A stretch of 64,000 nt of DNA, taken from contig CM059432.1 of the NCBI GenBank assembly GCA_030390025.1, positions 67,210,001-67,274,000 of the forward strand, written 5' to 3'. Source of the stretch: Squalus acanthias (Eukaryota). The stretch's first letter is position 1. Each line of letters starts with the position of its first letter. Made by a program: the position numbers and the translations under genes. This document shows, in pieces, positions 505 to 64,000 of this stretch. Under the pieces are notes generated by a model. It did no database searches. It was not told the origin of the DNA and saw nothing but the letters and a program-made list of their open reading frames with translations.

Positions 505-1864
505 AAGATATCAAGAGACAACTGAACACACTCGATACAGCAAAGGCGATGGGCCCTGACAACATCCCGGCTGTAGTGCTGAAGACTTGTGCTCCAGAAC
601 TAGCTGCGCCTCTAGCCATGCTGTTCCAGTACAGCTACAACACTGGCATTTACCTTACATACTGGAAAATTGCCCAGGTATGTGCTGTCCACAAAAAACA
701 GGACAAATCCAATCCGGCCAATTACCGCCCCATCAGTCTACTCTCAATCATCAGCAAAGTGATGGAAGGTGTCATCAGCAGTGCGATCAAGCAGCACTTG
801 TTCACCAATAACCTGCTCACCAATGGGTCCTGACAGAACCCATTCGGCTCCAGACCTCATTACAGCCTTGGTCCAAACATGGACAAAAGAGCTGAATTCT
901 AGAGGTGAGGCAAGAGTAACTGCCCTCGACATCAAGGCAGCATTTGACCAAGTGTGGCATCAAGGAGCCCTAGTAAAATTGAAGTCAATGGGAATCAGGG
1001 GAAAATTCTCCACTGGCTTGAGTTATACACAGCACAAAGGATGATGATTGTGATTGTTGGAGGTCAATCATCTCAGCCCCAGGACATCGCTGCAGGAGTT
1101 CCTCAGGGCAGTATCCAAGGCCCAACCATCTTCAGCTGCTTCATCAATGACCTTCCCTCCATCACAAGGTCAGAAGTGGCTATGTTCGCTGATGACTGCA
1201 GTGTTCAGTTCCATTTGCAACTCCTCAGATAATGAAGCAGCCCTGGACAATATTCAGACTTGGCCTGATAAGTGGCAAGTAACATTCTCGCCACACAAAT
1301 GCCAGGCAATGACCAACTCCAACAAGAGAGTGTCTAACCACCTCCCCTCGACATTCAACGGCATTACCATCACTGAATCCCCCATCAACATCCTGGGGGG
1401 TCACCATTGACCAGAAACTTAATTGGACCAGCCACATAAATACTGTGGCTACAAGAGCGGGTCAGAGGCTGGGTATTCTGTGGCAAGTGACTCACCTCCT
1501 GACTCCCCAAAGTCTTTCCACCACCTACAAGGCACAAGTCAGGAGTGTGATGGAATACTCTCCACTTGCCGCAACTTCTGCCACCTAGGTCAATAGCAGC
1601 CGCTGCACGGGAACGCCACCACCGCCAAGTTCCCCTCCAAGTCACACACCACCCTGACTTGGAAATGTATTGCCGCTCCTTCACAGTCAGTCAAAATCCA
1701 GGAACTCCCTACTTAACAGCACCGTGGGAGACCTTCACCACCACATGGACTGCAGCGGTTCGAGGAGGCGGCTCACCACCACGTTTACAAGGGCAATTAG
1801 GGATGGGCAATAAATGCTGGCTTTGCCAGCAATGCTCACATCCCGTCAATGAATTAAAAAAAAT
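505..1864 (+). mobile_element. 5'-truncated LINE 'family A' (CR1-group-like RT), frameshifted, with 3' tail and A-run
   Basis: ORF fragments GPDNIPAVVLKTCAPEL, NYRPISLLS, LDIKAAFD, GVPQGS, MFADD; ends ...CATCCCGTCAATGAATTAAAAAAA; homologous to the copies at 25551-28249 and 54826-57823. Confidence 0.9.
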
Positions 1865-1949
1865 TACAAGTGCAGACACCTCTACTTTTTTTTAAAATTT
1901 TAAACCTAAACCACACATGATTTCTAGTTGTTCAGCCAACGGTACGTCA

Positions 1950-23596: not shown

Positions 23597-23849
23597 AGTG
23601 CCATGGGAACACCACCACCTCCAAGTTCCCCTCCAAGTCACACACCATCCTGACTTAGAGGTATATCACCGATCCTTCATCGTCACTGGGTTAAAATCCT
23701 GGAACTCCCTCCCTAACAGTACTGTGGGAGTACCTTCACCACACGGACTGCAGCGGCTCACCACCACCTTCTCAAGGGCAATTAGGGATGGGCAATAAAT
23801 GCTGGTCTTGCCAGCGACGCCCACATCCCATAAACTAATTAAAAAAAAA
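23597..23849 (+). mobile_element. Family A LINE 3' tail
   Basis: CAAGTTCCCCTCCAAGTCACAC...GGGCAATTAGGGATGGGCAATAAATGCTGG...A-run, as in the other family A copies. Confidence 0.9.
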
Positions 23850-25550: not shown

Positions 25551-28249
25551 TTTTTTTTTTAATACTCGTTCATGGGATGTGGGCATTGCTGGCAAGGCCA
25601 GCATTTATTGCCCATACCTAGTTGCCCTCGAGAAGGTGGTGGTGAGCCGCCTTCTTGAACCGCTGCAGTCCGCTGTTAGGGAGGGAGTTCCAGGATTTTG
25701 ACCCAGTGACGATGAAGGAACGGCGATATACTTCCAAGTCAGGATGGTGTGCGACTTGGAGGGGAACTTGGAGGTGGTGGTGTTCTCATGCGCCTGCTGC
25801 CCTTGTCCTTCTAGGTGGTAGAGGTCGCGGGTTTGGGAGGTGCTGCCGAAGAAGCCTTGGCGAGTTGCTGCAGTGCATCTTGTGGATGGTACACACTGCA
25901 GCCACGGTACGCCGGCGGTGGAGGGAGTGAATGTTTAAGGTGGTGGATTGGGTGCCAATCAAGCGGGCTGCTTTGTCTTGGATGGTCGAGCTGCACTCAT
26001 CCAGGCAAGTGGAGAGTATTCCCTCACACTCCTGCCTTGTGCCTTGTAGATGGTGGAAAGGCTTTGGGGAGTCAGGAGGTGAGACACTCGCCACAGAATA
26101 CCCAGCCTCTGACCTGCTCTTCTTGCCACAGTATGCGTGTGGCTGGTCCAGTTAAGTTTCTGGTCAATGGTGACCCCCCCCAAGATGTTGATGGTGGGGG
26201 ATTTGGCGATGGTTATGCCATTGAATGTCAAGGGATGGTGGTTAGACTCTTGCTTGTTGGAGATAGTCATTGCCTGGCACTTGTGTGGCGCAAATGTTAC
26301 CTGTCACTTATCAGCCCAAGCCTGAATGTCGGCAGGTCTCAATGAAGCAGTCCATGCTTGCATGCAGCGCCTCATTATCGGAGGAGTTGCGAATGGCACT
26401 GAACACTGCAGTCATCAGCAAACATCCCCACTTCTGACCTTATGATGGAGGGAAGGTCCTTGATGAAGCAGCTGAAGATGGTTGGGCCTGGGACACTGCC
26501 CTTAGGAACTCCTGCAGCGATGTCCTGGGGCTGTGATGATTGACCTCCAACCACCACAACCATCTTCCTTTGTGCTAGGTATGACTCCGGCCAGTGGAGT
26601 GTTCCCCCCCACCCCCCGATTCCCATTGACTTCAGTTTTACTAGGGCTCCTTGATGTCACACTCGGTCAAATGCTGCCTTGGTGTCAAGGGCAGTCACTC
26701 TCACCTCACCTCTGGAATTCAGCTCCTTTGTCCATGTTTGGGCCAAGGCTGTAATGAGGTCGGGAGCCGAATGGTCTTGGCGGAACCCAAACTGGGCATC
26801 AGTGAGCAGGTTATTGTGAGTAAGTGCCGCTTGATAGCACTGTTGATGACACCTTCCCTCACTTTGCTGATGATTGAGAGTAGACTGATGGGGCAGTAAC
26901 TGGCCAGATTGGATTTGTCCTGCTTTTTGTGGACAGAACATACCTGGGCAGTTTTTCCACTTTGTCAGATAGATGCCAGTGTTATAGCTATACTGAAACA
27001 GCTTGGCTAGAGGTGCGGCTAGTTCTGGAGCACAAGTCTTCAGCACGACAGCCGGGATGTTGTCAGGGCCCACAGCCTTTGCTGTATCCAGTGCGCTCAG
27101 CCATTTATTGATATCACGTGGAGTGAATCAAATTGGCTGAAGACTGGCTTCTGTGGTGGTGGGGACCTCAGGAGGAGGCCGATATGGATCATCCACTCGG
27201 CATTTCTGGCTGAAGATGCTTGCAAACGCATCAGCTTTGTCTTTTGCACTCACGTGCTGAGCACCATCATGGAGGATGGGGATATTCAAGAAGCCTCCTG
27301 TTAGTTGTTTAATGGTCCACCACCATTCACGACTGAATGTTGCAGGACTGCAGAGCTTTGATCTGATCCGCTGACTGTGGGACCGCTTAGCTCTGTCTAT
27401 AGCATGCTGCTTCCGCTTTTAAGCATGCCTGTAGTCCTATGTTGCAGCTTCCCCAGGTTGGCACCGCATTTTTAGCTACGCCTGGTGCTGCTCCTGGCAT
27501 GCTCTTCTACACTCCTTATTGAACCAGGGTTGGTCCCCTGGCTTGATGGCAATGGTAGAGTGAGGGATATGCCGGGCCATGAGGTTACAGATTGTGGTGG
27601 AATACAATTCTGCTGCTGCACCTCATGGACTCCCAGTTTTAAGCTGCTAGATCTGTTATGAATCTATCCCATTTAGCATGGTGGTAAGTGCCACACAACA
27701 CGATGGAGAGCGTCCTCAGTGTGAAAACGGGACTGCGCCTCCACAATGACTGTGCGGTAGTCACTGCTACCAATGCTGCCATGGACAGATGCATCTGCGA
27801 CAGGTAGATTGGTGAGGACGAGGTCAAGTAGGTTTTTCCCCTCGTGTTGGTTCTCTCACCACCTTTCGCAAGCCCAGACTGGCAGCTATGTACTTCAGGA
27901 CTTGGCCAGCTCAGTCAGTAGTGGTGCTACCGATCCACTCTTGGTGATGAACATTGAAGTCCCCCATCCAGAGTACATTCTGAGCCCTTGCTACTCTCAG
28001 TGCTTCTTCCAAGTGGCGTTCAACATAGAGGAGTACTGATTTATCAGCTGAGGGAGGGCAGTAGGTGGTATCAGCAGGCGGTTTCCTTGCCCATGCTTGA
28101 CCTGAAGCTATTAGACTTCATGGGGTCCAGAGTCAATGTTGAGGACTCCCAGGGCCACTCCTTCCTGACTGTATACCACTGTGCTGCCACCCCTGGAGGG
28201 TCTGTCCTGCCGGTGGGACAGGACATACCCAGGGATGGTGATGGAGGAG
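25551..28249 (-). mobile_element. Family A LINE, 5'-truncated within the endonuclease region
   Basis: RT and APE fragments (LDLVLTNLP, GPDNIP, GVPKGS, MFADD); T10 at 25551-25560 is the poly(A) tail. Confidence 0.9.
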
Positions 28250-28881
28250 TTCTCCTTTTAAGTCCCTAATGCGTAGGTCTCCTTTTTGGTCCCTAATCAG
28301 CCCCACCACTCCTCTTACTACCTGTTTATTATTTAAATGCCTAAAAAAGACTTTTGAATTCCTTTTTATGTTAGCAAAAGAAAGCCAGTTATTTCCGATT
28401 TTTTCTTCTAGTCTTGCTAACCTGGTCCCTCTCCAAGGTCGAGAGCTGGATATTTACAAATAGCTGTAGTTTGTCTCTAATCTACCTCTTTGGCTCATAA
28501 ATTGAATAATTTAAACGGTGGTGTCTCATTCCTTCAGGTGGTAAATTGTTCTTACAGACTTTAAAAATGTCAAATTTTAAACTGTAATTTTTTTTCTTGT
28601 TTTTCATTTCTGTCTACTTTTTCTCTTTATCCAATCTTTCTTTCCCTCTCTATTTCTGTTTCCGTACCTAATTTGACTCTAATTCATGTTTTCTAATTCA
28701 CCCTCCTTCTTACTCAATCCTTAAATTTAATTGGTTATGGAGATACACTGTTTGCCCCACTGTTCAAGGGATATGGGGATAGTGCAGGAATTTTGAAGTG
28801 CAGTCACTGTTGTAAAGTAGGAAACACAGCAGCCAATTTGCACAAACACCAATGAGATAATGACCAGATAATCTGTTTTAG

Positions 28882-35800: not shown

Positions 35801-35843
35801 GGAGGAACAGCTTATGGCCAGCAGCAACAACAACTTGTATTTA

Positions 35844-36333
35844 CAGGAAACTCTTTGGTATCCGGCACCGACCGGACCGGCGTGGTGCCGGTTGATCGAA
35901 AGTTCCGGATAATGGAGAGTTATATCTACTGAGGCTATTTTTAACATAAAAAAATCAAGAAATGTGCAGTATACAGTATTTGGTTACTCACCTACAGAAT
36001 GTTGTGTTAAATGGATGGTGGAAGATGCTTGATTAAGTACAGTACTGCCAGTTGAGGGTAATCCATAACTCTTTAATTACTTAACAGTAAGTGAGACTCC
36101 CGGCAGCGCGGGAGAATCAGACTCCTGTTACTGCAGTGTTCGGACTTCCGACAGCGCCAGGAGGCCGAGTAGTGGCACTTTGGAGAACTACCCCCACTGA
36201 CTAACTCGGCGTTCGCGGGAGACTCGGACTCGGCAACATTGCCGGTTATTTGAGAGGAGTTTTCGGAGTATGATTTTTGCCGGTTAAGAGAGAATTCCGG
36301 ATATTTAGGTGCCGGTTAAACAAGAGTTTCCTG
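35844..36333. mobile_element. Tigger-like MITE (family of 17417-17771, opposite orientation)
   Basis: TIRs CAGGAAACTCTT / AAGAGTTTCCTG; TA flanks. Confidence 0.85.
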
Positions 36334-36486: not shown

Positions 36487-39470
36487 AGGCACAAGTCAGG
36501 AGTGTGATGAAATACTCTCCACTTGCCTGGATGAGAGCAGCTCCAACAACACTCAAGAAGCTCAACACCATCCAAGACAAAGCAGCCCACTTGATTGGCA
36601 CCCCATCCACCACCTTAAACATTAATTCCCTCCACCACCGGTGTACCGTGGCTGCAGTGTGTACCATCTACAAGATGCACCGCAGCAACTCGCCAAGGCT
36701 TCTTCGCCAGCATCTCCCAAACCTGTGATCTCTACCATCTAGAAGGACAAGGGCAGCAGGCGCATGGGAACACCACCACCTCCAAGTTCCCCTCCAAGTC
36801 ACACACCATCCTGACTTGGAAATATATCGCCGTTCCTTCATAGTCTCTAGGTCAAAATCCTGGAACTCCCTCCCTAACAGCACTGTGGGAGTACCTTCAC
36901 CACACGGACTGCAGCGGTTCAAGAAGGCGGCTGACCACCACCTTCTCGAGGGCAACTAGATATGGGCAATAAATGCTGGTGTTGCCAGCAACGCCCACAT
37001 CCCATGAACGAGTATAACAAAAAGGCAGAGGGCATGGCTGAGGTACTAAATGAGTACTTTGCATCTGTCTTCACCAAGGAAGAAGATGCTGCCAAAGTCA
37101 CAGTGAAAGAAGAGGTCGTGGAGATACTGGATGAGATAAGAATTGATAAAGAGGAGGTACGAGTAAGGCTGTCTGAACTTAAAGTTGATAAGTCACCAGG
37201 ACCGGATGGGATGCTGAGGGAGATTAAGGAGGAAATTGCGGAGGTAATTGCCATAATCTCCCATTCCTTAGATACGGGGGTGGTGCCAAACGACTGGAGA
37301 ATTGCAAATGTTACACCCTTGTTCAAAAAAGGGTGTAAGGATAAACTCAGCAACTACAGGCCAGTCAGTTTAATCTCACTAGTGGGGAAGCTTTTGTAAA
37401 CGATAATCAGGGACAAAGTTAACAGTCACTTGGACAAGTATGGATTAATTAAGGAAAGCCAGCACGAATTTGTTAAAGGCAAATTGTGTTTAACTAACTT
37501 GATTCAGTTTTTTGATGAGGTAACAGAGAGAGTTGATGAGAGCAATGCGGTTGATGTGGTTTATATGGACTTCCAAAAGGCATTTGATAAAGTGCCACAT
37601 AATAGGCTTGCCAGCAAAGTTGAAGCCCATGGAATAAAAAGGACAGTGGCAGCATGGATATGAAATTGGCTAAGTGACAGGAAAGAGAGAGTAGTGGTGA
37701 ATGGTTGTTTTTCAGACTGGAGGAAGGTACACAGTGGGGTTCCCCAGGGGTTGGTACTAGGACCACTGCTTTTCTTGATATATATTAATGACTTGGACTT
37801 GGGAGTACAGGGCACAATTTCAAAATTTGCGGATGACACAAAACTTGGAAGTATAGCGAACAGTGAGGAGGATAGTGATAGACTTCAAGAAGACATAGAC
37901 AGGCTGGTGAAATGGGCGGACACGTGGCAGATGAAATTTAATGCAGAAAAAGTGCGAAGTGAGACATTTTGGTAGGAAGAACGAGGAGAGGCAATATAAA
38001 CTGAAGGGTACAATCCCAAAGGTGGGTGCATGAACAGAGAAACCTGGGGGTACATGTGCACAAATCGTTGAAGGTGGCAGGGCAGGTTGAGAAAGCGGTT
38101 AAAAAGGCATACGGGATCCTGGGCTTCATAAATAGAGGCATAGGGCTCAATTTTCACCGGCCCGTGGAGGCGGGAGTGGTGTGAAAATAGCAGATTCGGT
38201 GGTCCTGAACCCATCCCACCTCCATGCCAGTTTCCCAGGAGGCGGGTACCCGACCTGTGCTGGGACCTGCCTCCCCGAGGCGGGAAGGGGATTAGTGCCA
38301 ATAAACTGCCTGTTAACAGGCAGTTTTCTGCCTAATCCCTATTTTTAGCCGTTAAGTGTGGGCTTCCTGACAGGTCCGAACCACGCCGATTTAGCGAGGC
38401 GGACCGTCGGTCTGGAGGGCTTGGAGGGGTCAAGATGTCCGGTGTGCAGGTGAGTGATGAGTGCAGAGGTAAGTGTGTTTGGTGTGTGTAAAGTGTTTTA
38501 AGAACTTTTACTTACCTTAACTTTGTCCTGCAGGCTAGCTTCCTTAAGGTGTCGGGACGGCACAGAAAGCAGAATGGCCGCGGAGCTGTCAAAAGCTGCA
38601 GTCTCTGCTTTCTGTGCTGGATTGATTTCTAACTGACTCACGTTAGAAATCATATTGTCAGTGTTTGACAGCTTCACACAGCTCTTGACATATGAAATTT
38701 CAATGGCTGACGTCACCTGTATCCAAGGGACCCTTGATTGGCCTGCTAAGCCCACTGGGCGGGCTTAACAAGGTCAATCAAGGGAAAATACAGTGGGTTG
38801 GCCACAAGTCGATGGAGGCGGGACTACAACCCAAAAAGTGGGAGTCCCGCCTCCATCACGTCCCCATTGACAAAATCCAGCCCATAGAGTACAAAAGCAA
38901 GGAAGCTATGATGAACCTTTATAAAACACTGGTTCGGCCACAACTGGAGTATTGTGTCCAATTCTGGGCACCGCATTTTAGGAAGGATGTGAAGGCCTTA
39001 GAGAGGGTGCAGAAAAGATTTACAAGAATTGTTCCAGGGATGAGGGACTTCAGTTACATGGATAGACTAGAGAAGCTGGGGTTGTTCTCCTTAGAGCAGA
39101 GAAGATTGAGAGGAGATTTGATAGAGGTGTTCAAAATCATGAGGGGTCTGGACAGAGTAGATAGAGAGAAACTATTCCCATTGGCAGAAGGGTCGAGACA
39201 GATTCAAGGTGAAAGAACCAAAGGCGACATGAGGAAAAACTTTTTTACGCAGCGAGTGTTTAGGATCTGGAATGCATTGCCTGAAAGGGTGATGGAGGCA
39301 AATTCAATCATGGCTTTCAAAAGGGAATTGGATAAGTACCTGAAGGAAAAAAAAATTGCAGGACTATGGGTAAAGGGCGGGGGAGTGTGACGAGCTTAAG
39401 TGCAGAGAGCCGGCCTGGGCTCGATGGGCTGAATGGCCTCCTGTGCTGTAACCATTCTATGATTCTATGA
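36487..39470 (+). mobile_element. Composite: family A LINE 3' part (36487-37022) fused to a CR1 3' half (37023-39470)
   Basis: Family A tail runs directly into CR1 AEGMAEVLNEYFASVF; CR1 RT ORFs to 39390; ends ATTCTATGATTCTATG. Confidence 0.9.
38143..38883. mobile_element. Harbinger-type MITE inserted in CR1
   Basis: TIR GGGCTCAATTTT / AAAATCCAGCCC; TSD ATA; removal restores the CR1 frame G-I-E-Y-K. Confidence 0.85.
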
Positions 39471-43723: not shown

Positions 43724-43836
43724 TACTGGTAAAGATTTAATTTCAGTACCCTTAATTTAAGCTAGATCAAGTAACTACACTGTAAACTAAGTTACCTAAT
43801 TACAAATTTAATTAAATAAAACAAGGTCATATAGGG

Positions 43837-44785
43837 ATGGCAGTGCAGGTGGTGTGCCGCAACTGCAGCATGTGGGAGTTTGTGGAGAGCATTGTGATCC
43901 CGGACAACCACGTTTGCAGTAAGTGCCTGCATCTTGAGCTTCAGCTCAGAGTTTTTGAGCTGGAGTTTGAGGTGCAGACATTGCGGGGCATCAGGGATCG
44001 GGAGAGTTACCTGGACAGGATCCAGGAGGTAGTCACACCCCTTAGGTTAGGTAGTGGTACAGGTCTGGTTAGTGGTCAAGAACAGGAGGGTGTGACTACA
44101 ACTCAGGCAAGTAAGGGGACCCCAGGTGCAGTGCTGGAGGAGCCTCAGCCTTTGCCCTTGTGCAACAGGTATGAAGTTCTTGCTGCCTGTGTGGATGAGG
44201 GAAAAGCCTGCAAGGTGGATGAGCAAGCTGACCATGGCACCATGGTGCAGGAGGCCATTCAAGTGGGGGGCGTGAAAGGGAATGTAGTTGTGGTCGGGGA
44301 CAGTATAGTCAGGGGGATAGATATGGTTCTCTGCAGCCGCGACCGAGAGTTCCGAAGGTTGTGTTGCCTGCCCAGTGCCAGGGTTAAAGACATCTCGTGG
44401 CTGGAGGAGAACTTGGAGTGGGAGGGGGAGGATCCAGTTATCGTGGTCCACATAGGAACCAATGACATAGGTAGAACTAGGAATGAGGTTCTGCTGAGGG
44501 AGTTTGAGGAGCTAGGATCCAAATTAAAAAGCAGAACCTCAAAGGTAATAATCTCTGGATTGTCACCTGAGCCACGTGCAAATTGGCATAGGGACAAACA
44601 TTAGAAGTTTAAATGCGTGGCTCAAAGAGTGGTGTGGGAGGAAGGTGTTTCAGTTCATGGGGCACTGGCACCAGTACTAGGGAAAGAGGGAGCTGTTCTG
44701 TTGGTACGGGCTCCACTTAAACCAGGCTGGGACCAGTGTCCTGGCGAACCGAATAACTAGGGCAATAGACAGGGCTTTAAACTAA
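43837..44785 (+). pseudogene. CR1 ORF1 (Cys-rich zinc finger/zipper plus SGNH-type esterase), frameshifted near 44600
   Basis: CRNC..CSKC, LELQLRVFELE, VVGDSIVRG, VHIGTND and, in the shifted frame, GLHLN; TAA at 44783-44785. Confidence 0.85.
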
Positions 44786-45036
44786 TGAAGGGGGGTGGGG
44801 GGGTGGGAGGATTCAGGAAAGAGTAAATTTTAAAGCAGTGAGAGAAATGTCAAGGCTCTAGAGCAGAGTAGAGTTTTGATTAAAAATAAGCAGAGTGGGT
44901 CAGGAAGGAGAGAGAGTAACAAAAGTAATAAGGCATCAGTGACTAAGGTGATATCAGGGAAAAATAGAAATAAGTCAAAGCTATAGGCACTATATCTGAA
45001 TGCGCGAAGCATTCGCAACAAAATAGATGAATTAAT

Positions 45037-45801
45037 GGCCCAGAAATTAAACATGGATGGTTCCCGCGGGGGTAAGGATTCCCCGCGATATCGCACTCCG
45101 CGCCTACCTTTTTGCTCCGGGCCCACACGAACTTTAGTTTCAAAGGCTCTCTCTGTTGGAACCGTGCAGTGCTTGCGTGACCCAGAGGCGCAATTAGTTC
45201 GTGCGAGCTCTGGGATCACGTGATTCAGTTAGAGCCAATGGCAGCACACCATCTTTCATTCATAGTTTTGACGGCAAGAGCTGTCAAAGCTATGAATACT
45301 AAAAACCTCCAAAAGAACAGCTAAACCTCAATTAATTTTTTTTAAAAAGCCATCACATTAATAAAATAAGTATAGTTAAATAAATTAACCACTTTAAACA
45401 AAAAATTAAACTTTTGAAAAAATTTAAAATCTTTTTAAAAGTTATAAAAATCAACTTACCTTTCTTTAAAGTCTCTAAAAAAGATAAACCTGTTGAAAAA
45501 AATTTAAAATAACACTTAATTAACTACTTACCTTGTTAAAAGGGGGTCCTACGCCTGCTTTCTTTGTGTGTAAAATCTTCACCACTTACCTGCGCGTTCA
45601 AAGCTGAAAAAAAACCTAAGTGCACTGCGTGCGCACAGCCTGTAGTGCGCACGCGGTTCACTTAGGAACCGCCCCCTTTTCAATTCACGAAGTGCCGGTT
45701 TCCCGCGCATGCGCAGTGCATGCAGGAAACCGACAATTCGGGATCTAATACGCGAGAGTACACAGTGCGTACTCTCGCGTATTAGGTTTAATTTTCGGGC
45801 C
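45037..45801. mobile_element. Harbinger-type MITE, hairpin-array family, copy 2
   Basis: TIR GGCCCAGAAATTAAAC / GTTTAATTTTCGGGCC; TSD AAT; removal restores CR1 E-L-I-A-Q-I-E. Confidence 0.9.
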
Positions 45802-47188
45802 AATAGCGCAGATAGAAATTAACAGGTTTGATCTAACAGCCATTACGGAGACGTGGTTGCAAAGTGGCCAAGGTTGGAAACTAAATATTCCAGGATACTA
45901 AACTTTTAGAAGAGATAGGCAAAAGGGAAAATGAGGAGGGGTAGCCCTGATAATAAAGGATGGGATAAAGACAGTAGAGAGAAAGGATCTTAGCTCCGAA
46001 AATCAAGACGTAGAATCAGTTTGGGTGGAGCTAAGAAACAGCAAGGAGCAGAAAACATTGGTGGGAGTGGTTTATAGGCCCCCAAACAGTAGTTGTAATG
46101 TAGGGCAGAGAATAAATCAGGAAATTAGAGGCGCATGTAACAAGGGTAATACAGTGATCATGGGGGACTTTAATCTACATATAGACTGGGCAAACCAAAT
46201 TTGCAGTAATAGTGTGGAGGACGAATTCATGGAATGTATGCAAGATAGTTTTCTCGATCAGTATGTTGAGGAACCAACTAGGGAACAGGCTATTTTAGAT
46301 CTAGTATTGTGCAATGAGAAAGAGTTAATTAATAACCTTGTAGTAAAGGGGCCTTTGGGGAAGAGTGACCATAATACGAAAGAATATTATATCGAGTTTG
46401 AAAGTGATTTAGTTAAATCAGAAACTCGGGTCTTAAATCTAAACAAAGCAAACTACATCGGTGTGAGGGGTGAGTTGGCTACGGTAGATTGGGAAACTAC
46501 ATTAAAAGGTATGACAGTAGACAAGCAATGGCTAGGGTTTAAAGAATTAATACATAATTTACAACAAATATACATTCTTTAAGGCACAAAAACCCCACAG
46601 GAAAAGTGGTCCAACCGTAGTTAAGAAGAGAAGTTAAAGATAGTATTAGATCAAAGGAAGAGGCTTATAATGGTCCCGAAAAGAATAGAAAGCCTGAGGA
46701 TTGGGAGGATTTTAGAATTCAGCAAAGGAGGACCAAGAAATTGATAAAGAAAGGGAAAATGGAACATGAGAGTAAACTAACGAGAGACATAAAAATAGAC
46801 TGTAAAAGCTTCTATAGGTATGTAAAAAGGAAAAGATTAGCAAAAGTAAATGTGGGTGAGACAGGAGAAATTATAATGGGGAATAAGGAAATGGCAGAGA
46901 AATTAAACAAATACTTTGGGCTCGATTTTAATGGAGGATGCGGGATGGAGTCGGGTTGCCTGGTGGGCGAGTTTCGGACGTGCTGCCGGTTTCAGCCGCT
47001 CCCGGTGTCCCATTTTGAGTTAATTGGTCCAATTAGCCCCATCGTGCACGCTGCCTGCTGCAATGAGTTGCAACGGGTCTGTTGGTCTGCACTGATGAGA
47101 TCTCTGCTGCACTTGTTTTTAAGGGCTCCATGTAGCCTCAGCCTCTCATTTCTCACTGCTGCTGCTGTTGGAAAGGGCCAGGATCACC

Positions 47189-49165
47189 ATGAGTGCTGCC
47201 ACAGGCAAGAAGGCTGCTCCTAGATTCAATGACGACTCCCTGCAAGCTCCTGTAGAGGGAGTAAGAGGGCGCAGGGACATTCTCTTCCCTGCCGATGGCC
47301 GCAGGATGCCTCCTCAACAGACGAAGGCAGCCTAGCTGGAGATAGCTGAGGAAGTCAGCACAAGGTCGCTGTGTGGACGCACCTGGCTCCAGTGCCGCAA
47401 ACGCTTCAATGATCTTGTCCGAACATCAAAAGTGAATTTCATATCACACTTACCTTCACCCTGCTTCCCTTCTCTTCTCATCACCAGCACTCTGCTTTGT
47501 CAGCCTGCTCCTCCACATCCCACCTTACCCTTACTTCCCTTGCGCCCTTACCTTTCTATCTCTCTGTACTGAATCACTTCACCATCCTGCTATGCAGCCC
47601 TCACACTTGCTCTCAGTGTTATGCAATGACAACAACTAACAGCTCACAGGTAGGCTCCTTTCTCTTGCCACCTCACTCCATTGTGATTTCAAATAAAACT
47701 GTTGGACTATAACCTGGTGTTGTGCGACTTCTCATTTTTTTCACTCCATCCTGACCTCCCTCTAAGATTCTACCTTATGGATTCTTCACATTCACTCCAT
47801 CACTCTCGCTGAAACTCCACTTGTGTCCCTCCATGCAGGAAAAGATAGCCCACAATAAGAGGGAGAGATCCAAGACAGGAGGAGGCACACCATCACTCGC
47901 CACATTAAATCATGCTGAGGAGGCTGCTCGCGACATCTTGGGAGGTGGCGAGGAGCTGGAAGTGGGGGACAGAGAGACGGGCGCACTAGAGAAGCTGGTG
48001 ACAAAATGCATTTTCATCCCTCGCTTTTACAATTCCTAATTGACTGCAATGGCATATGTTGCTCATAGAGATTTAATTCTGATCATCTGCACAATAGGAT
48101 GTGTCTGCTACCTCCAAATTTGATGTCTAACTCATGCCTTTACTCTCCCACAGGACCATCGAGAGCCACCCTCCCCACTGTCCAGGAGGAAGAGCCAGTC
48201 GAATCCTCAGAGGAACCTGGAGCCTCTGAGGGAGCAGTGTCACCAGGACTCGGCACACCCAGCAACAGCGCAGATACGCACACCTCGATGGGACGTTCGC
48301 GACATAGAGTAGTGTTGTCACCTGGTGTACCACAGCTCACAAGTGAGCATCAGCAAATGCTGGAGACAGCGACAGCAGTGGAGAGTCCTCGTTGGAGGTC
48401 GCAGGACTCTCCTAGCTCAGCTCAGCTGCATGTAGACCCTGTGCCTCTGGGGCCATCCAGAAAGAGAGCGGTGCTGGAACTCCAGGAACAAGTGCAGTAG
48501 TCTCTGACAGGGTTTGCATCCAGGGTAACTGTGAGTGTGGAGAGAATGGAGGAGTCCATCTCTAACATGAGCACTGCCTTTGTGGAGGCAATGGCGCATG
48601 AACGTGCCACCATGGAGAGGGTGGCAACCTCCTTGGAGGACATAAGTTGCCACACTCAACAGAGCATGGTGACTCTTCTAAATAGATGGTCTACTATGGA
48701 GGATAGATGGGCATCTATTGAGGAGAGACACGAGAGGTACATGGATGTCCCCGTTATGAGGACTGTCAGTACAGAGATGGGTCCTCATGGCCCCACTGAG
48801 GTGCAGCAGGTTGCTCTCCAGCCACTTGCTAGCAGTGAAGTGCAGGCGACCCATGAGAGGGATGTTGGTGGCAGACAACAAGGAAGTGTGGGTTCCTCTC
48901 CAAGCGCTCACACAACCATGTCACTGCGGAGCCCTCGGTCAGAGCCCCAGGTTCCTCACCCAACTGAGATAGTCGTCTCAGCCCCTGCACAGCTGCAGGA
49001 AGAGCAGACTGGAGGAGCTCTCACAGACTCCCAAACCCAGAGGACGCCCGCCAAAGGCGTCTAAGCAGGCGCAGCACCAAAGTGAGCAAGGTGCCTCTAC
49101 ATCTGCTGAAGCCACAGGGGAAGTACCACGTTGGAGCACACATAATCGGAAGTTAAAGCACTAAT
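47189..49165 (+). pseudogene. Harbinger Myb/SANT-like DNA-binding protein, 3 exons (47189-47431, 47839-47997, 48154-~49165), disrupted
   Basis: MSAATGKKAAPRFNDD...AA*LEIAEEV...QCRKRFNDL; EKIAHNKRERSKTGGG; premature TAG codons and a phase mismatch between exons 2 and 3. Confidence 0.85.
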
Positions 49166-49449: not shown

Positions 49450-50688
49450 TTACGTGAATCTGGCATGGATGAGTGATTCCCTTGCCAGACGGCCAGCAAT
49501 GTAGTCGCGTGCGGCTGCATTGGCCACTTACGGCCCCCTGTCCTCCTCGTCCTCTTCCTATTCTTCCGAGGAGTGTGTGTGCTGAGCCACTTGTTCATCC
49601 GGCAGCACTAAGCCGCGCTGCTGTGCGATGTTGTGCAGGGCACAGCAGACCACGATGATTCTGGACACCCTGGCTGGTGCATACTGCAAGGCTCCACCAG
49701 ATCTGTCCAGGCATTGGATGCGCATTTTGAGCAAGCCGATGGTTTGCTCGATGATGCTTCTGGTGGATAAGTGACTCACATTGTGGCGCTCCTCAGCCTC
49801 GTTTGTTGGCCTCCTCATCAGTGTCATAAGCCACTTTTTCAGGGGATAGCCCTTGTCGCCAAGTAGCCATCCGCAAAGTTCGGCTGGCGGATTGAAGAGC
49901 TGAGGCACAGTAGACTGGTGCAGGATGAAGGAGTCATGGCAACTGCCAGGGTACTTAGCGCAAACATGCATGATGATCTTCCTGTGGTTACACACCAGCT
50001 GGACGTTCAGGGAGTGTAATCCCTTGCGGTTGACAAATACAGCTGGGTTGTGATAGGGGGCCCTAATGGCTACATGTCTGCAGTCTATGACGCCCTGCAC
50101 CATTGGCAAGCCTGCCATACTGGCAAAGCCAACCGCTCGCGCGGTCACACTTGGGCCATCCATGAAGAAGTGGATGTAATTATGGGCCTTTGCAAAGAGG
50201 GCATCGGTGACCTGCGTGATGCAGGTGTGTGCGGCCGACTGGGAGATGCCACTGATGTCTGCAGCTGATCCCTGGAAGGAGCCCGAAGCAAACAAGTTGA
50301 GTGCGGTGGTGACTTTGACAGCCAATGGTAAGGAGTGTCCACCCGCTCCTCTGGGCTCCAGGTGTTGGTGCAGCATTGCGCAGATGTCAGCGACTACGTC
50401 TCTCGAAAGTCTCAGCCTCCTTTGGCACTGCTGCTCAGTCATGCTGAGGAAGCTGAACCTCTGCCTGTAAACCCTGTGTTGGGGGTATCTCCTGCGGCGA
50501 GGTGCAGCCCTGCGCTGCTGCTCTCCGCCCTGTGCAGCATCAGGTGGGTGAGGAGGAGGTTGGCGCTCCTGGTGCTGGTGCTGCTGTTGTGGCTGGTTGT
50601 GGTGCTGTTGTGGCTGGTTGTGGTGCTGCCGCGGCTGCTCTTCCTCCAAATCTGACGACTAGGATGAGAGGATATAAATGGTTCCCAT
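49450..50688 (-). pseudogene. Harbinger DDE transposase (HARBI1-like) with three in-frame stops
   Basis: ATG at 50688; stops at 50659-50661, 49558-49560 and ~49528-49530; motifs [29 protein letters not shown]; terminal ARFT* at 49450. Confidence 0.9.
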
Positions 50689-54825: not shown

Positions 54826-57823
54826 TTCCTGCTGACCTTGTCTTCTAGGTTGTAGAGGTCGTGGGTTTGGGAGGTGCTGTCGAAGAAGCCTTGGCGAATT
54901 GCTGCAGCGCATCTTGTTGATGGTACACACTGCAACCACTGTGCGCCGGTGGTGGAGGGAGTGAATGTTTAAGGTGCTGGATGGGGTGCCAATCAAGCGG
55001 GCTGCTTTGTCTTGGATGGTGTCGAGCTTCTTGAGCGTTGTTGGAGCTGCACTCATCCAGGCAAGAGGAGAGTATTCCATCAGACTCCTGACTTGTGCCT
55101 TGTAGATGGTGGAAAGACTTTGGGGAGTCAGCAGGGGAGACACTCATTGCAGAATACCCAGCCTCTGGCCTGCTCTTGTAGCCACAGCATTTATCTGGCT
55201 GATCCAGTTAAGGTTCTGGTCAATGGTGACCCCCCAGGATGTTGATGGTGGGGGATTCGGCGATGGTAATGTCGTTGAATGTCAAGGGGCGGTGATTCGA
55301 CTCCCTCTCGTTGGAGATAGACATTGCCTGGCACTTGTGTGGTGAGAATGTAACTTGCCACTTAACAACCAAAGTCTGAATATGTCGCCCATGTCTTGCT
55401 GCATGCGGGCATGGACTGCTTCATTATCTGAGGAGTTGTGAATGAAACTGAACACTGTGCAATCATCAGCGAACATCCCCTCTTCTGACCTTACGATGGA
55501 GGGAAGGTTATTGATGAAGCAGCTGAAGATGATTGGGCCTAGAGCACTACCCTTAGGAACTCCTGCAGCGATGTCTTGGGGCTGAGATGATTGGCCTCCA
55601 ACAACCACAACCATCTTCCTTTGTGCTAGGTATGACTCCAGCCAGTGGAGAGTTTTCCCCTATTCCCATTGACTTCAATTTTATTAGGGCTCCTTGATGC
55701 CACATTCAGTGCTGCCTTGATGTCAAGGGCAATCACTCTCACCTCACCTCTGGAATTCAGCTCTTTTATTCATGTTTAGACCAAGGCTGTAATGAGATCT
55801 GGAGCCAAGCGGTCCTGGCAGAACCCAAACTGAGCATTGGTGAGCAGGGTATTGGTGAGTAAGTGCCGCTTTATAGCACTGTCAATGACACCTTCCATCA
55901 CTTTGCTGGTAATGGAGAGTAGATTGATGGGGCAGTAATTGGCCAGATTGGATTTGTCCTGCCTTTTGTGGACAGGACATACCTGGGCAGTTTTCCACAT
56001 TGTAGATGCCGGAACAGCTTGGCTAGAAGCGCAGCTAGTTCTCGAGCACAAGTCTTCAGCACGACAGCCGGGATGTTGTCGGGGCCCATAGCATTTGCTG
56101 TATCCAGTGCGCTCAGCCGTTACTTGCTATCACGTGGAGTGAATCAAATTGGCTGAAGACTAGCTTCTGGGATGGTGGGGACCTCAGGAGGAGGCCGATA
56201 TGAATCATCCACTCGGCACTTCTGGCTGAAGATGGTTGCAAACACTTCAGCCTTGTCTTTTGCACTCGTGTGCTGGGCTCCGCCATCATTGAGGATGGGG
56301 ATGTTCATGGAGCCTCCTCCTCCCATTAGTTATTTAACTGTCCACCACCGTTCAAAACTGGATGTGGTAGGACTGCAGAGCTTTGATCTGATCCATTGGT
56401 TGTGAGATCATTTAGCTTTGTCTATAGGATGCTGCTTCCGCTGTTTAGCATGCATGTAGTCCTATGTTGCATCTTCTCCAGGTTGGCACCTTCATTTTAT
56501 GTACACCTGGTGCTGCTCCTGGCATCCTCTTCTACACACCTCATTGAACCAGGGTTGGTCCCTTGGTTTTATGGTAATGGTCGAGTGAGGGACATGCCGT
56601 GCCATGAGGTTGCAGATTGTGGTGGAATACAATTCTGCTGCTGTTGCTCCACCGCGCCTTATGGATGCCCAGTTTTGAGCTGCTAGATCTGTTCTGAATC
56701 TATCCCATTTAGTGCGGTGGTAGTGCCACACAACACGATGGAGGGTGTACTCAGTGTGAAGACGGGACTTCATCTCCACAAGGACTGTGCGGTCACCGCT
56801 ACCAATACTGTCATGGACAGATGCATCTGCGACAGGTAGATTGGTGAGGACGAGGTCAAGTAGGTTTTTCCCTCGTGTTGGTTCTCTCTGCACCTGCTGC
56901 AGGCCCAATCTGGCAGCTATGTCCTTCAGGACTCGGCCAGCTCAGTCAGTAGTGGTGCTACCGAGCCACTCTTGGTGATAGACATTGAAGTCCCCCACCC
57001 AGAGTACATTCTGTGCCCTTGCTATACTCAGTGTTTCTTCCAAGTGGTATTCAACGTAGAGGAGTACTGATTCTTCAGTTGAGGGAGGGCGGTAGGTGGT
57101 AATCAGCGGGAGGTTCCTTGCTTGACCTGAAGCCGTCAGACTTCATGGGGTCCGGAGTCAATGTTGAGTACCCTCAGGGCCACTCCCTCCTGACTGTATA
57201 CCACCTCTGTCCTGTGGGTGGGTCTGTCCTGCCAGTGTGACAGGCATACCCAGGGATGGTGATGGAGGAGTCTGGGACATTAGCTGAAAGCTATGATTCT
57301 GTGAGTATGACTGTCAGGCTGTTGTTTGACTAGTCTGGGACAGCTCTCCCAATTTTGGCACAAGTCCCCAGATGTTAGCGAGGAGGACTTTGCCAGGTCG
57401 ACTGGGCTGGGTGTGCCTTTGTCATGTCCAAAGCCGGTGTCTAGGTGGTCCATCTGGTTTTATTCTTATTATTGTTTTTTGTAGCGGATTAGTACAACTG
57501 AGTGGCTTGCTAGGCCATTTCAGAGTCAATCACATTGCTGTGGGTCTGGAGTCACATATAGGCCAGACCAGGTAAGGGCAATCATGGAACTACCGGATTG
57601 TCGTAAAAACCCACTACTAGTGAACCAGATGGGTTTTTATGACAATCCGCTAGTTTCATGGTCAACATTACTGATGCTAGCTTCTTTTTTATATTCCAGA
57701 TTTATTTATTTATTTAACTGAATTTAGAATTCCGTGGTGGGATTTGAACTCACATCTCCGGATCATTTGTGCATGCCTCTGGATTACTAGTCCAATAACA
57801 TAACCGCTATGCTACCGTACCCC
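54826..57823 (-). mobile_element. Family A LINE with intact 5' end (tRNA-derived head plus APE-RT, no ORF1), lacking its 3' tail
   Basis: Head 57823-~57500 leads into KVLLANIWGLVPKLGELS (APE start), then GDFN, LDLVLTN, GPDNIP and MFADD motifs. Confidence 0.85.
57740..57814 (-). promoter_or_regulatory. Pol III type-2 internal promoter (tRNA-like head)
   Basis: A-box TAGCATAGCGG (57804-57814); B-box AGTTCAAATCC (57740-57750); anticodon-like arm TGGA-CTAGTAA-TCCA. Confidence 0.8.
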
Positions 57824-58837: not shown

Positions 58838-59844
58838 TTTAGCAATAGCAATAGCAACAAATTGCATTTATATAGTGAATTTCACGTAGAGAAACATCCC
58901 AAGGCACTTCACAGAAATGTTTGCTTTCAAAATTCAAACACTAGATCAGGCTGCAAGGGAGCAGACACCACTGCTGCCTGCTCCCAACGCACAATGTCAA
59001 TTTCTTCAGGGTAGAGACCTGGCATTACCATCTATCCCAATCCCTCAGGAAATTCAAGATACCAGTTGAAAGTTTGAAATGTTACCTTTCAATAGTCCTG
59101 TTTACGTCTTTGGCGTCCAAGAAAATTCACAATTTACCAGACCTTCTGCCAAAAATTATTAATGATTACCCAATTGCTTTAATTTTTGACCTCCAGCTAT
59201 TACATCTACATATGATTCCCCAAAGTGACTTTTTTCCATTTCATGCACCTGATTATGCCTGTTTTGTAATTGTTACTTCTTGCATACTGGTTTATTCTGA
59301 CACACATTATGTATGCCTTATCCAGAGACTAGGGGGTAAAAATTCAGTTGGTTGCGCCTCCCGTTAGCGCCTTAAGAGGGCGCTAATGGGGCGCAAAGCC
59401 GCTAACGCCCGGGCGCAGCGATGTTTGCGCCGCTCGGGAACTTAACTAGAGATTGTGCGGCGGCGCTAAAACTTACCGCTGCGACCACCTGCGCGCGCAG
59501 ATTGTGACGTCATTCCATGGTGCAACGCCCTTGTGGCGCCCCGGAGCGGAAATTGAGTGGCGCCCCCTGCCTTACCGCCTGGCGCATCCAACGACCGGAA
59601 GACTGGAACGCTATCAATCGCTGTGGGGCTGGGGGGGGGCGCTATTTAAAGGGGGCCTCTTCCTGTCTTTTTCTGTGGTCGACATTTTTGCACCACTCGT
59701 TCTGAGAGAGAGAGAGAGATTCGGAGAGAGAGAAAGAGAGACTTCTACATTGACTCAACGCTTTGTGAGGTAGTTTTGCTTATTGATCCTAACTTCGCTG
59801 GTCCTTTAGTTGCTGTCCTTCATTACTTTGCTTGCAAAGAGAAT

Positions 59845-60996
59845 ATGGGGGCTGCACTGATTGGGGGCGTCGTCCTGCTCCAGCTGAATCGGAGGATACA
59901 GAGACGCAGAGAGAGAGTGGCAATGATGGCCAGACGGAGGAGGGCCATCAGGCGTATGTACAGGAGAGCTTACCCTCCCAGGGTATATCGTGAACAGCTC
60001 TCCTACATCCATATGTCTGAGGAGCTGTGTTTGCAAAGGCTGCGATTCAGCAAGGAGGTGGTCACTGAGCTCTGCCACCTGCTGCAGCCAGATCTGCAGC
60101 CTCAACTGAGGTCCAGGACGTCTCTGTCGGTGGCAGTGAAGGTCACAGTGGCTCTCAACTTTTACGCTACTGGCTCATTTCAAGCTGCTGCTGGGGACCT
60201 CGCCAATATCTCCCAGTTCGCGGTGCATTGCTGCATCCGGCAGGTCACAAATGCCCTCTTTAAAAGGAGACGAGAGTTCATCTCTTTCCCCATGACCCCA
60301 GACAAGCAGCGTGACCGCACTCTGGGCTTTGCGAGGGTAGCGGGCTTCCCCATGGTGCAGGGCGCCATTGACTGCACGCATGTGGCTTTGCGTGCTCCGC
60401 ATGAGAATGCCGAGGAATTCAGGAACAGAAAGGGGTTCCATTCCTTGAATGTTCAGTTGGTCTGTGACCACAGACAGCTGATACTCGCTGTCAATGCCCA
60501 GTATCCTGGCAGCTGCCACGATGCTTTTATCCTGCGCCAGACTACTGTGACAGGACTTTTCGAGGCACCGCATCAGCCAGTTGGTTGGCTTCTCGGGGAC
60601 AAGGGGTATGCATTGAGCACCTGGCTGATGACACCGCTCCGTACGCCCAACACCCCTGCTGAGCTGCGGTACAATGAGAGCCATCAAGCTACCAGGAACA
60701 TAATTGAGCGCACAATCGGCGTGCTGAAGCAACGGTTCCGCTGTCTCGACCATTCTGGAGGAGCCCTGCAGTACTCGCCTGAGCGAGTATCGAACTTCGT
60801 AGTCGTGTGCTGCATGTTGCATAACATGGCAATCCTCAGGACCCAGCCAATGCCACCAGGCCTTGGAGCACCACCAGAGGAGGAGGAGGAAGAGGACGAG
60901 GAGGATGATCATCAGCAGCACCAAGGCGGGAGGGCGGCCCACAATGGTCAAACTGCAAGGGCCGTCCGTCAACGGCTAATAGCAAGCCGCTTCTAG
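59845..60996 (+). CDS. Harbinger DDE transposase (HARBI1-like), 383 aa from the first ATG
   Basis: Open frame with [57 protein letters not shown]-like TATTTAAA at 59643. Confidence 0.93.
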   Translation: MGAALIGGVVLLQLNRRIQRRRERVAMMARRRRAIRRMYRRAYPPRVYREQLSYIHMSEELCLQRLRFSKEVVTELCHLLQPDLQPQLRSRTSLSVAVKVTVALNFYATGSFQAAAGDLANISQFAVHCCIRQVTNALFKRRREFISFPMTPDKQRDRTLGFARVAGFPMVQGAIDCTHVALRAPHENAEEFRNRKGFHSLNVQLVCDHRQLILAVNAQYPGSCHDAFILRQTTVTGLFEAPHQPVGWLLGDKGYALSTWLMTPLRTPNTPAELRYNESHQATRNIIERTIGVLKQRFRCLDHSGGALQYSPERVSNFVVVCCMLHNMAILRTQPMPPGLGAPPEEEEEEDEEDDHQQHQGGRAAHNGQTARAVRQRLIASRF

Positions 60997-61290: not shown

Positions 61291-62273
61291 CTACTTTTTG
61301 CCCTTCGAGGGTGATCTCCTTCCCTTGCGCACTTCCCCCCTTCTAACCCTACTGCTCCTCCGTAATGAGACCTCAGTGGCTGCAGCAAGGCTGGTGGAAG
61401 GCTGCTGCTCGTCAGACCCTGACACTGCAGATGCCCCTGAAAGACGGCCTCGACCAGTTCTGGGCCTGGAGGGCCCGGCTGCAGACTGCACCAACTCTGC
61501 ATGGGCGGCAGCAGTCTGTCCTACAGGCGGTGGCAAGTGCAGTGGAGAAGTGACAGTGTTGGCAGCAGGAATGCTGTCATCGTGAGAGAGGACAGCAACT
61601 CCCTGCTCGCCCGACACACTGGCACTCCCACGGGGCAGCACTTCAGCATCCGGAGCAATCTGCCGGAGAACAGATTGCTGGCCTGCTGCGGCGCGGTGAC
61701 AGCCCCGGGGACATGTGCACGAACCATCGAGGTTGGCAGCAGTCTGTGCTCGCGTGGCCTCAATCTGAGTCTGTATGAGAGCAGTCAGAGATGGGATCAC
61801 GGCAGCCAGTGACTGAATTGCAGCACTAAGCGTTAGTGTGGCATCCGCCTGTGCTACAGCGAAGTGCTCCACACTCCTTGCCAGTGACTCAATGCATTCG
61901 GGCACCCTTCCCACTGCACCCATGAGCTCAGTGTGCATGCCCACCGCCTGGGTGTTCATTTCTGCGATCAGCCGCTCCTCCTCTGCGTCCATTGCAGTAG
62001 GAGTGTCTGGCATACTCTCCCTCTGGGGAGAAGGCCCCCGTTCTTCCCTACCCCCCCCCCCATGGCGTTGCTGCAGCCCGCTGGGTCCTGGAGCTTCACC
62101 CTCATCAGACCCTTCCCCCCTGCTCCCCTCCAGGGAAGGCGTGTTCCCAGTGTGGGCATGGGCTTCCTCGGGAGAGGGTGGCACTGATGCTCCGGCTTCC
62201 TCTTCCTCCTCAGCTGCAGCATCACTCCCAGTGGCAGCTTCAGGGCCCGTCTCCTCAGCTGGTGAATCACCAT
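61291..62273 (-). CDS. Harbinger Myb/SANT protein exon 3
   Basis: Acceptor ctttcag|; phase 1 joins exon 2 and is in frame with ORF 61291-62184; basic tail RRSSRVRR..KGKK*. Confidence 0.8.
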
Positions 62274-62432
62274 CTGAAAGCAGGGAGGTACAAGAGTGGC
62301 TTTAGCGTGAGGACAGGGTGGCAGTAAGGGAGGAATAAGTGCAGCGAGTTAGCAAGTTGGATTGAAAGTGTCAAAGGCTGGTGTTGTGAGGGACAAGTGG
62401 AAGGACAGAGGACAAAAAGGTGATGACCTTAC

Positions 62433-62595
62433 CATTGCTGTCCAGAACGGGGTCGGCGTCTCCAGTGGCGACGGGACCAATCACCCGGCTTGCCACAATC
62501 CTGTGGACGCGCTCCTCAAGATCGCTGAGGGGTTGCAGCTGAGGCCGCCCTCCACCTGTCCGTTGCTGCTGTCTCCGATTATGCGCCAGCTTGGC
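62433..62595 (-). CDS. Harbinger Myb/SANT protein exon 2
   Basis: ttacag|AKLAHNRRQQQRTGGG...DSN-G|gtaagg; 163 nt. Confidence 0.85.
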
Positions 62596-62629
62596 CTGTA
62601 AGAAAAAGGACAGCATCTGAGTAAATATA

Positions 62630-62739
62630 CAGCCATGGTCTTGCCTGATGTGCCTCCCATAGGTGAATAGCCCTTACTGTATGCAGCCATGGTCTTGCCT
62701 GATGTGCCTCCCATAGGTGAATAGCCCTTACTGTATGCA
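62630..62739. repeat. Perfect 54-bp tandem duplication in Myb-gene intron 1
   Basis: CAGCCATGGTCTTGCCTGATGTGCCTCCCATAGGTGAATAGCCCTTACTGTATG x2. Confidence 0.95.
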
Positions 62740-62879
62740 AAGTGTGGAATGTGTGTGTGTGTTTCATGAAAGGGCCATAGGTGTTGGATGAGTGTTGTGC
62801 ATTGGGGTTTTAAGACCCTCTGGCCATAGAGTGAGGTTGAGATTGTTGGATGGAGAGGTATTGAGAAAAAGCCACTCAC

Positions 62880-63116
62880 CCTGACGACCCGAGTGAGGTC
62901 GTTGAACTTTTTGCGGCATTGAGTATGGGTCCTGGGCACCATGCTCCTGGAGGAGACGCTCTGAGCCACCTCCCTCCACACTCTTCTGAACTCGCGTGGC
63001 AAAGGCCTCCTGCCACTCTCAGGGAAGAGCATACATCTTCTGCGCTCCACCGCGCCAACCAGAGCATCCAAGGCCCGCTCGGTGAAGCGATGAGCACGTT
63101 CTCTCACCCTCTCCAT
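62880..63116 (-). CDS. Harbinger Myb/SANT protein exon 1
   Basis: MERVRERAHRFTERALDALV...WREVAQSV...QCRKKFNDLTRVVR|gtgagt; 237 nt, phase 0; spliced product 460 aa. Confidence 0.88.
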
Positions 63117-64000
63117 GCTTGGCAGCAAAATGGATTCACAGGTCTCTCCAGGCCGAGATTCAAGGCTGCAATGAGCAGGGTGTGGCTGGGGAGCAAGTTG
63201 GCCCCCCCCCGCTTTAAGAAGTGGCCGGCGCCAGTGTGTCTGTGTTCCCTCGCTAACTGGCAGCAGCTGCGCTGCGCTCGCGCGCTGAGTTAGCGCCTCA
63301 CTCCTTGGCCTTTGCGCCTTAAGACAGGTGTGCAGCGCCTGATTTAGCGCTCCACTCACCTCCCGGGGCGGTAAAAGTGAAGTTTCCAGTCAGTGCCGAT
63401 AATTAGCGCCAGGCGCTAATATTTGCGTCCAGACGATATTTGCGCCCCAAATGGGGCGCGACCTAATTTTTACCCCTAGGTCTATGTTGCATTCCCCATT
63501 GTTCACACAATTTTCTCTTTGTTCACTTAACTTGAGCATTTCAGAGTTTTTATTTGGTTGTTTCACATCCCATTTTCTGACAACCACTTTAGTACAGAAT
63601 TCTTTGTTTGCTTTTTATTGTTTCTTCTGCCCGACTTAACTGTACTGCTTTGTTAAGGGTCAAGAGAATTATTTGATTTTCCATAAATTATTTTTCCTTT
63701 ATTAGAGATTCTGTCAATTCACCAAAATCACAGGTCCTAATGAGTCTTTAAGAAGATTGCATGCTGATTAATTGATTCTCCTATTTTCTGTTCCATTATA
63801 TAAAAAAAAGTTACCATTTATAGGTCATATTTCATTTAAGATTGAAGTGCCTGTCAAAATTATTCATTATAACAGTTACGTTTTGGTGTGTACTCAGATA
63901 TTTATTCTCATGCTTAGAATCAAGGAAGAATCCTGCAAGCAAACTTACTCCTTATGAAACATTCACATTATCTGGTATGTAGCATTGCCCAAGGGTGGAA

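Follow-up and report, generated by a model that had tools for sequence, protein, structure and literature searches.

The closest described relatives of the element analysed here are the elasmobranch Zenon LINEs (SquAca_Zenon-1, CarCar, HypSab, RhiTyp and ScyCan; PMC13343379), which belong to the same family and are presented in that source as Zenon elements without ORF1 and with a poly-A tail. By eye, the first 400 nt of SquAca_Zenon-1 match our family consensus almost letter for letter (length 3314 versus 3306 nt). The family is already published under this name; the architecture described below (a tRNA-like head, avoidance of T-runs, a missing AUG and SINE-like derivatives) is family-wide and shared across species, and is apparently unremarked in the main text of PMC13343379, where tRNA, promoter, polymerase III and start codon have 0 occurrences. 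Invertebrate CR1-Zenon elements and the lepidopteran SIDE Persaeus likewise feature a single EN-RT ORF, a poly-A tail and derivatives formed by internal deletion, yet Persaeus, which carries the Zenon 5' UTR, is described without tRNA homology or a Pol III promoter, unlike the shark element (PMC6740152). tRNA-derived SINEs (SINE2; T+ SINEs such as B2) resemble the shark element in their A/B-box head, a start about 8 nt 5' of box A, the lack of an internal terminator, an A tail and an AATAAA near the end (PMC8466645). The shark element differs from SINE2 in being 3.3 kb long and coding, and its SINE-like forms appear to be LINE deletion products rather than tRNA-tail fusions. RTE-1_DAn and elements related to it are also LINEs with a tRNA-like sequence, but they belong to the RTE clade of Drosophila, and the position of that sequence, its promoter role and T-runs are undescribed in what we cite of PMC5786205. 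The SINEs that PMC5499810 describes from sharks end in L2 tails and are apparently different elements. Within the openly available full-text literature, we found no report of a Pol III-transcribed autonomous LINE or of such a head.

Here we analyse a decayed copy of this family in a 64-kb stretch of Squalus acanthias DNA (hereafter the window, meaning the whole stretch). Taking the sequence comparisons below together, we read it as a copy of an autonomous shark Zenon LINE with a tRNA-type head, which was probably transcribed by Pol III and translated from a non-AUG start. The focal copy comprises the following features.

54828..57822, (-): decayed Zenon-type LINE copy, 89.2% match to family consensus 1-3052 of 3306
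57736..57822, (-): tRNA-like head with the family start GGG at 57822; Rfam tRNA 22 bits, E 0.056; start common to 117 copies
57804..57814, (-): Pol III box A, TAGCATAGCGG, consensus positions 9-19
57740..57751, (-): Pol III box B, GAGTTCAAATCC, consensus positions 72-83
57572..57616, (.): locally inverted patch, matching consensus 150-191 on the opposite strand
57496..57635, (-): leader block of ~140 nt, by eye near-invariant in five shark/ray consensuses (first 400 nt, PMC13343379 supplement) and retained by SINE-like derivatives
57483..57523, (-): candidate anticodon-like hairpin plus in-frame GCT (stem 57517-57503, 7-nt loop 57513-57507, GCT 57485-57483), a speculative IRES pseudoknot
54828..57482, (-): single ORF, with stops and frameshifts in the focal copy, open in the consensus
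56700..57391, (-): AP-endonuclease domain (approximate), PF03372 and PF14529 on a sister copy, mapped by tblastn
55200..56150, (-): approximate extent of the reverse transcriptase domain, from PF00078 in a sister copy and tblastn mapping

The 5' end of this copy is intact, while its last ~250 nt (3' UTR and poly-A) have been lost. An initial annotation of the window had placed an A-box and a B-box in the head and the endonuclease about 450 nt downstream with no ORF1; the boxes lie at 57814-57804 and 57751-57740, the endonuclease starts (KVLL) at 57391, 431 nt from the 5' end, and there is no ORF1 between head and KVLL. The same annotation had assigned a T5 in the head to a local inversion, and this T5 (57605-57609) indeed falls in the inverted patch, which is private to the focal copy and missing in 39 others. 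ARAGORN called no tRNA in the window, a result that, together with an Rfam tRNA score of just 22 bits, is what a SINE-type head would give. With relaxed settings ARAGORN did make calls in the consensus and in metagenome loci, which we dismissed as noise.

Four further stretches of the window derive from the same family.

25563..28251, (-): second copy, consensus 564-3306, 5'-truncated, tail present, inserted in CR1
507..1854, (+): third copy, consensus 1722-2819 and 3015-3305, 5'-truncated with an internal deletion
36487..37014, (+): 3' fragment, consensus 2779-3306, CR1 junction identical to that of the second copy
23602..23839, (+): fifth, short 3' fragment, consensus 3055-3305

The shared insertion junction makes 36487-37014 a local duplicate of 25563-28251 and no independent copy; the Zenon-tail/CR1 junction recurs on opposite strands in 24451-26044 and 36487-38143 (89.7% over 1664 nt), which constitute an old local inverted duplication. 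In many decayed family copies (for example L032, L037, L041 and L310), stretches of 10-30 nt have often been deleted at short direct repeats, and small local inversions are frequent too.

Other residents of the window include a Harbinger-type DNA transposon, which may be young, where a DDE_Tnp_4 frame (E 2e-39), open over 448 codons, and a Myb/SANT frame face each other (59650-60996, (+), and 61291-63389, (-)). A second Harbinger-type transposase frame at 49558-50658, (-), (DDE_Tnp_4 E 9e-35) shares 66% identity with the first across 656 nt, with its likely partner frame opposite at 48069-49064, (+). At 43816-47223, (+), lies a near full-length CR1 in which a 262-codon frame with a GDS motif precedes the endonuclease; the motif hints at an esterase ORF1, for which Pfam gave no hit at 1e-3. 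An island of 60% G+C against a 40% background at 35001-36000 is possibly a host promoter.

The family consensus, a majority sequence of 24 copies refined on 80 aligned segments, is 3306 nt long and has one open frame of 970-973 codons with a basic N-terminal arm, followed by an A tail. Sister copies yield Pfam matches to an AP endonuclease (PF03372/PF14529) and a reverse transcriptase (PF00078), and end in poly-A. Exact 21-mer matches in the genome number 5,691 for the leader, 6,695 for the endonuclease start and 26,472 for the 3' part of the RT. Target-site duplications of >=5 nt were absent from 24/37 copies and near chance in the others. A search of the S. acanthias genome for an old divergent lineage recovered only one that is 97.7% identical, and viral contigs and prokaryote genomes yielded no related locus.

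Could the head simply be a SINE that happens to abut a 5'-truncated LINE at the focal locus? SINE-like elements with the same head are indeed common, accounting for 32/77 leader loci. The same junction, however, recurs in 41/77 unselected leader loci, in 36/40 endonuclease-start loci and in five species, a sharing across loci and species that refutes chance adjacency and leaves it a negligible probability. In a search for the head-endonuclease junction, which gave 10,300 first-look candidates in the 3.7-Gb genome with 40 scored, 15/39 other best junction matches were unbroken from head to query 3' end. A second sample was selected on the endonuclease-start motif alone (40 loci from the first 100 listed, skipping places previously fetched): 36/40 extend into the leader and 23/40 reach consensus nt 1-5, so that the head is not confined to the focal copy, while the remaining 17/40 end at scattered points (49-403). 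No alternative common 5' end and no ORF1 were found among these 40 loci, nor did any full-length copy among them carry the Pol II 5' UTR that the initial annotation had named as a possible contradiction. Across 117 distinct 5' ends, G occupies each of positions +1 to +3 in 76-82%, with background composition upstream, and the start GGG sits sharply 8 nt 5' of box A. In this family the tRNA-like head is the native 5' end, and the family shows the Pol III type 2 layout of internal boxes A and B with a start just 5' of A.

A like head opens the consensuses of white shark, stingray, whale shark and catshark in the PMC13343379 supplement (first 400 nt; 30/41 places), three of which contain the box B GGTTCGAATCC, and it is missing from the first 400 nt of the hagfish and coelacanth Zenons given there. 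The five elasmobranch Zenons diverge by up to 16%, and for the stingray supplement table 3 gives 3/612 ORF2 as intact. In a quick IQ-TREE reconstruction of the RT (75 rows, excluding named Repbase references) the shark element is set apart from its own genome's CR1 and falls into a clade of 26 rows (SH-aLRT 96), among ORF1-less invertebrate relatives. Twelve relatives in the Zenon clade, found in other animals, possess in-frame ATGs but lack an A/B box pair at their 5' ends, and an Rfam scan of 17/80 related metagenome loci found a tRNA head in none.

The leader is also found outside full-length elements. Among 77 consecutive loci bearing a leader motif, 41 run on into the ORF, in 32 the leader is joined to the 3' tail, and 4 are of other kinds; the jumps to the tail exit at nt 325-356 and land at nt 3141-3255, which indicates that several SINE-like families are deletion products keeping exactly the leader. 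Only these 0.4-0.5 kb derivatives are short and non-coding as SINE2 elements are; the full element has 3.3 kb and an ORF under purifying selection. At the A-tail junction we also observed T4-T5+ at 13/91 parsed 3' ends (e.g. L067, L068, L264 and L266), T3 at 2 and T1 at 60, with 30/121 unparsed; a T4-T5+ before the A tail may act as a terminal Pol III terminator of the kind found in T+ SINEs, or may result from palindrome formation after insertion.

A tRNA-type 5' end need not mean Pol III transcription. The family may instead have captured a SINE 5' end while being transcribed by Pol II, with head or leader serving as the promoter, into a capped, polyadenylated RNA, being T-poor for unrelated reasons and translated by leaky reinitiation at a near-cognate codon, an explanation that we regard as rather unlikely. 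It fits with LINEs being generally Pol II units, and with the Drosophila RTE whose tRNA-like sequence is on record with no Pol III claim in the cited part of the source (PMC5786205 for both). An AATAAA 46 nt 5' of the A tail is likewise compatible with Pol II 3' processing. It fits less well with a start fixed 8 nt before box A, the same in the SINE-like derivatives, or with the retention of both boxes in the first 400 nt of the five species' consensuses (PMC13343379) though flanking head sequence diverges.

The distribution of T-runs bears on the same choice. The initial annotation had counted sense-strand T4 runs in four copies by eye; its counts are exact (one at 56354-56357 in the focal copy, one at 27724-27727 in the second copy, none in 505-1855 or 36487-37010), but the last of these intervals is the local duplicate noted above. 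Each of the two runs is private to its copy and missing at the aligned site of the other, and the T4-free ancestor that was proposed on this basis agrees with the family consensus, whose sense strand holds 0 T4 and 7 TTT in 3306 nt, as do both main subfamilies; these are ~2% apart and so add little independent evidence. Against null models the proposed depletion holds in part. T4 alone falls short of significance under a synonymous shuffle (0 observed versus 1.95 expected, P=0.10), a point in favour of the Pol II alternative, and gives P=0.17 under a Markov-1 model and P=0.013 under a base shuffle (4.1 expected). TTT runs are depleted under the synonymous shuffle (5 observed versus 11.9 expected, P=0.002). 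TCTTT, TATTT and TGTTT are reported to stop Pol III too (PMC8466645), and the combined class of T4 or TVTTT is absent where the synonymous shuffle would give 3.5 (P=0.0125), the base shuffle 7.2 (P=0.0008) and the Markov-1 model 3.6 (P=0.03).

The depletion is sense-strand-specific, with 21 T4/TVTTT sites on the antisense strand, and the A, C and G analogues show none in the shuffle null; this specificity for T and strand, and its extension to TVTTT, argue against Pol II transcription. So does CR1 of the same genome, which has a similar T content and is not depleted: a control consensus from 29 loci (2246 nt, 21.5% T) has 6 T4+ runs (P=0.004 versus 0 in 3306), and the CR1 copies in the window, noted from the outset as rich in sense T4 runs, have 2-9 sense T4+ runs per 0.6-1.7 kb. 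Related metagenome loci contain 2-56 T4 runs in the longest ORF (80/80 loci), and the 12 Zenon-clade relatives contain 170 in 29.9 kb, or 5.7 per kb, of which L115 (1/12) is itself under its codon null (19 versus 30.9). The sense strand is somewhat T-poor, as had been cautioned (19.9% T in the family), and its product Phe-poor (18/973 residues); P0009, a Zenon-clade protein of 954 aa from contigs of 3.4-4.0 kb, with its called start directly at the endonuclease motif, is equally Phe-poor (1.7%). The composition may thus have other causes, and P0009 is possibly an independent T-avoiding lineage.

The family ORF evolved under purifying selection. Variants in >=8 copies (non-CpG) divide into 44 synonymous, 26 missense and 0 nonsense, against 412:1326:75 for singletons, and this synonymous bias among common variants implies translation of the master elements. 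In frame, no Met occurs before codon 284, which lies beyond the endonuclease and is preceded by 20 ATGs (8 in the leader and 12 more) that would hinder cap scanning of a Pol II transcript. Read in the endonuclease frame, the variants at nt 390, 401, 410, 414 and 455 are silent, and subfamily length changes in the nt 390-455 region are of 3 or 6 nt; the silent variants from nt 390 on suggest that translation began between nt 330 and 390. An AUG start by read-through of an in-frame ATG-GCC-TAG was rejected because the main subfamilies add a second in-frame stop (exact motif counts: TAA-type 1132 versus TAC-type 357) yet show purifying selection: between two subfamilies that both have TAG and TAA just upstream, we count 29 synonymous versus 14 missense differences. 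Frameshifting from an out-of-frame 76-codon uORF was also set aside, there being no X-XXY-YYZ site by inspection, the main-frame variants being silent and the uORF being closed in the stingray consensus, as was a conserved ACG start, which is missing in an older subfamily and in the stingray (first 400 nt, PMC13343379 supplement). The non-AUG initiation anticipated in the initial annotation is therefore supported as a need of this ORF, given its late first Met and the selection seen in subfamilies with upstream stops.

How might such a start be set? Consensus nt 304-318 can form a candidate tRNA-mimic hairpin, with a 4-bp stem and a 7-nt loop, CUAGCAA, that we take to fit the anticodon-loop pattern. 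Its AGC is able to pair with a GCU at nt 336-338, in frame beyond a 10-nt linker, a geometry for which a post-hoc shuffle gave P 0.017-0.027. Judged by eye, all five elasmobranch species retain GCTA, and in the whale shark a 9-nt linker leaves GCTA in frame while shifting the upstream ATG out (first 400 nt, PMC13343379 supplement). Three other runs showed hairpin and GCTA unchanged with a varying linker (40/44 rows). In the youngest subfamily, variants common to several copies include one wobble, one mismatch within the stem and a U-to-C change in the loop, with no compensatory pair seen. Leader folding energy is ordinary (z about 0), and no Rfam IRES family matched the leader at E<10. PMC3894237, in the part cited, speculated that dicistrovirus-type IRESs might occur in non-LTR elements. 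The proposed arrangement would resemble PKI of the dicistrovirus IGR IRES (PMC4132737, as far as cited here) in a non-AUG start and in an anticodon-like hairpin that could pair with an in-frame codon past a variable linker, and differs from it in having no Rfam match, PKII/PKIII or covariation, and 4 possible pairs instead of 5. That the hairpin sets the frame as in dicistrovirus IGR IRESs is a tentative proposal, doubtful on balance.

Returning to the reading of a Pol III-transcribed LINE, the combination of a tRNA-type promoter, no terminator T-runs and no normal start codon makes Pol III transcription likely. TFIIIC would bind the internal boxes A and B, and Pol III would start at GGG and transcribe 3.3 kb, passing the A tail and continuing up to the next T-run, a read-through that T-run loss would have made possible. 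Translation of the uncapped RNA would begin somewhere between consensus nt 330 and 390, probably via the conserved 140-nt leader block; reinitiation after short uORFs could take the place of frame-setting by the hairpin. The RNA of R2 offers a parallel as an uncapped LINE RNA not made by Pol II, with the difference that it is cut from a Pol I transcript. The protein would then bind the 3' tail, with new copies inserted by target-primed reverse transcription, and, as the promoter is internal, loss of the middle would give ready-made tRNA SINEs. We consider the complete scheme (a protein-coding 3.3-kb Pol III retrotransposon with purged terminators, dicistrovirus-like pseudoknot initiation and SINEs arising by middle loss) unlikely in all of its parts at once. 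RNA-labelled runs contain the family sequence as contigs, uninformative on polymerase, strand, start or level, and no match to the family appeared in one DNA run or in one RNA run.

Pol III RNAs are normally untranslated, and labour might be divided, with Pol III making the copied RNA of a giant SINE and the protein coming from rare copies that Pol II reads as part of host transcripts, or from a master whose 5' end is a different one. The start codon that is not evident and the hairpin changes tolerated in the youngest subfamily would be in keeping with such a division. Purifying selection on the ORF in head-bearing copies, however, indicates that the copied RNA is the translated RNA or closely linked to it, no other 5' end appeared in the 40 endonuclease-start loci, and the AUG problem is identical for a Pol II transcript; we thus judge this arrangement improbable.

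If the reading of an autonomous, Pol III-transcribed Zenon LINE is true, it would break the textbook split between LINEs as coding Pol II elements and SINEs as non-coding Pol III elements, and would represent a natural vertebrate protein-coding Pol III transcript as well as a cellular candidate for cap- and AUG-independent initiation. It would also provide a one-step route from a LINE to a tRNA SINE, in a large family (26,472 exact matches to one 3' 21-mer) that is common to sharks and rays.
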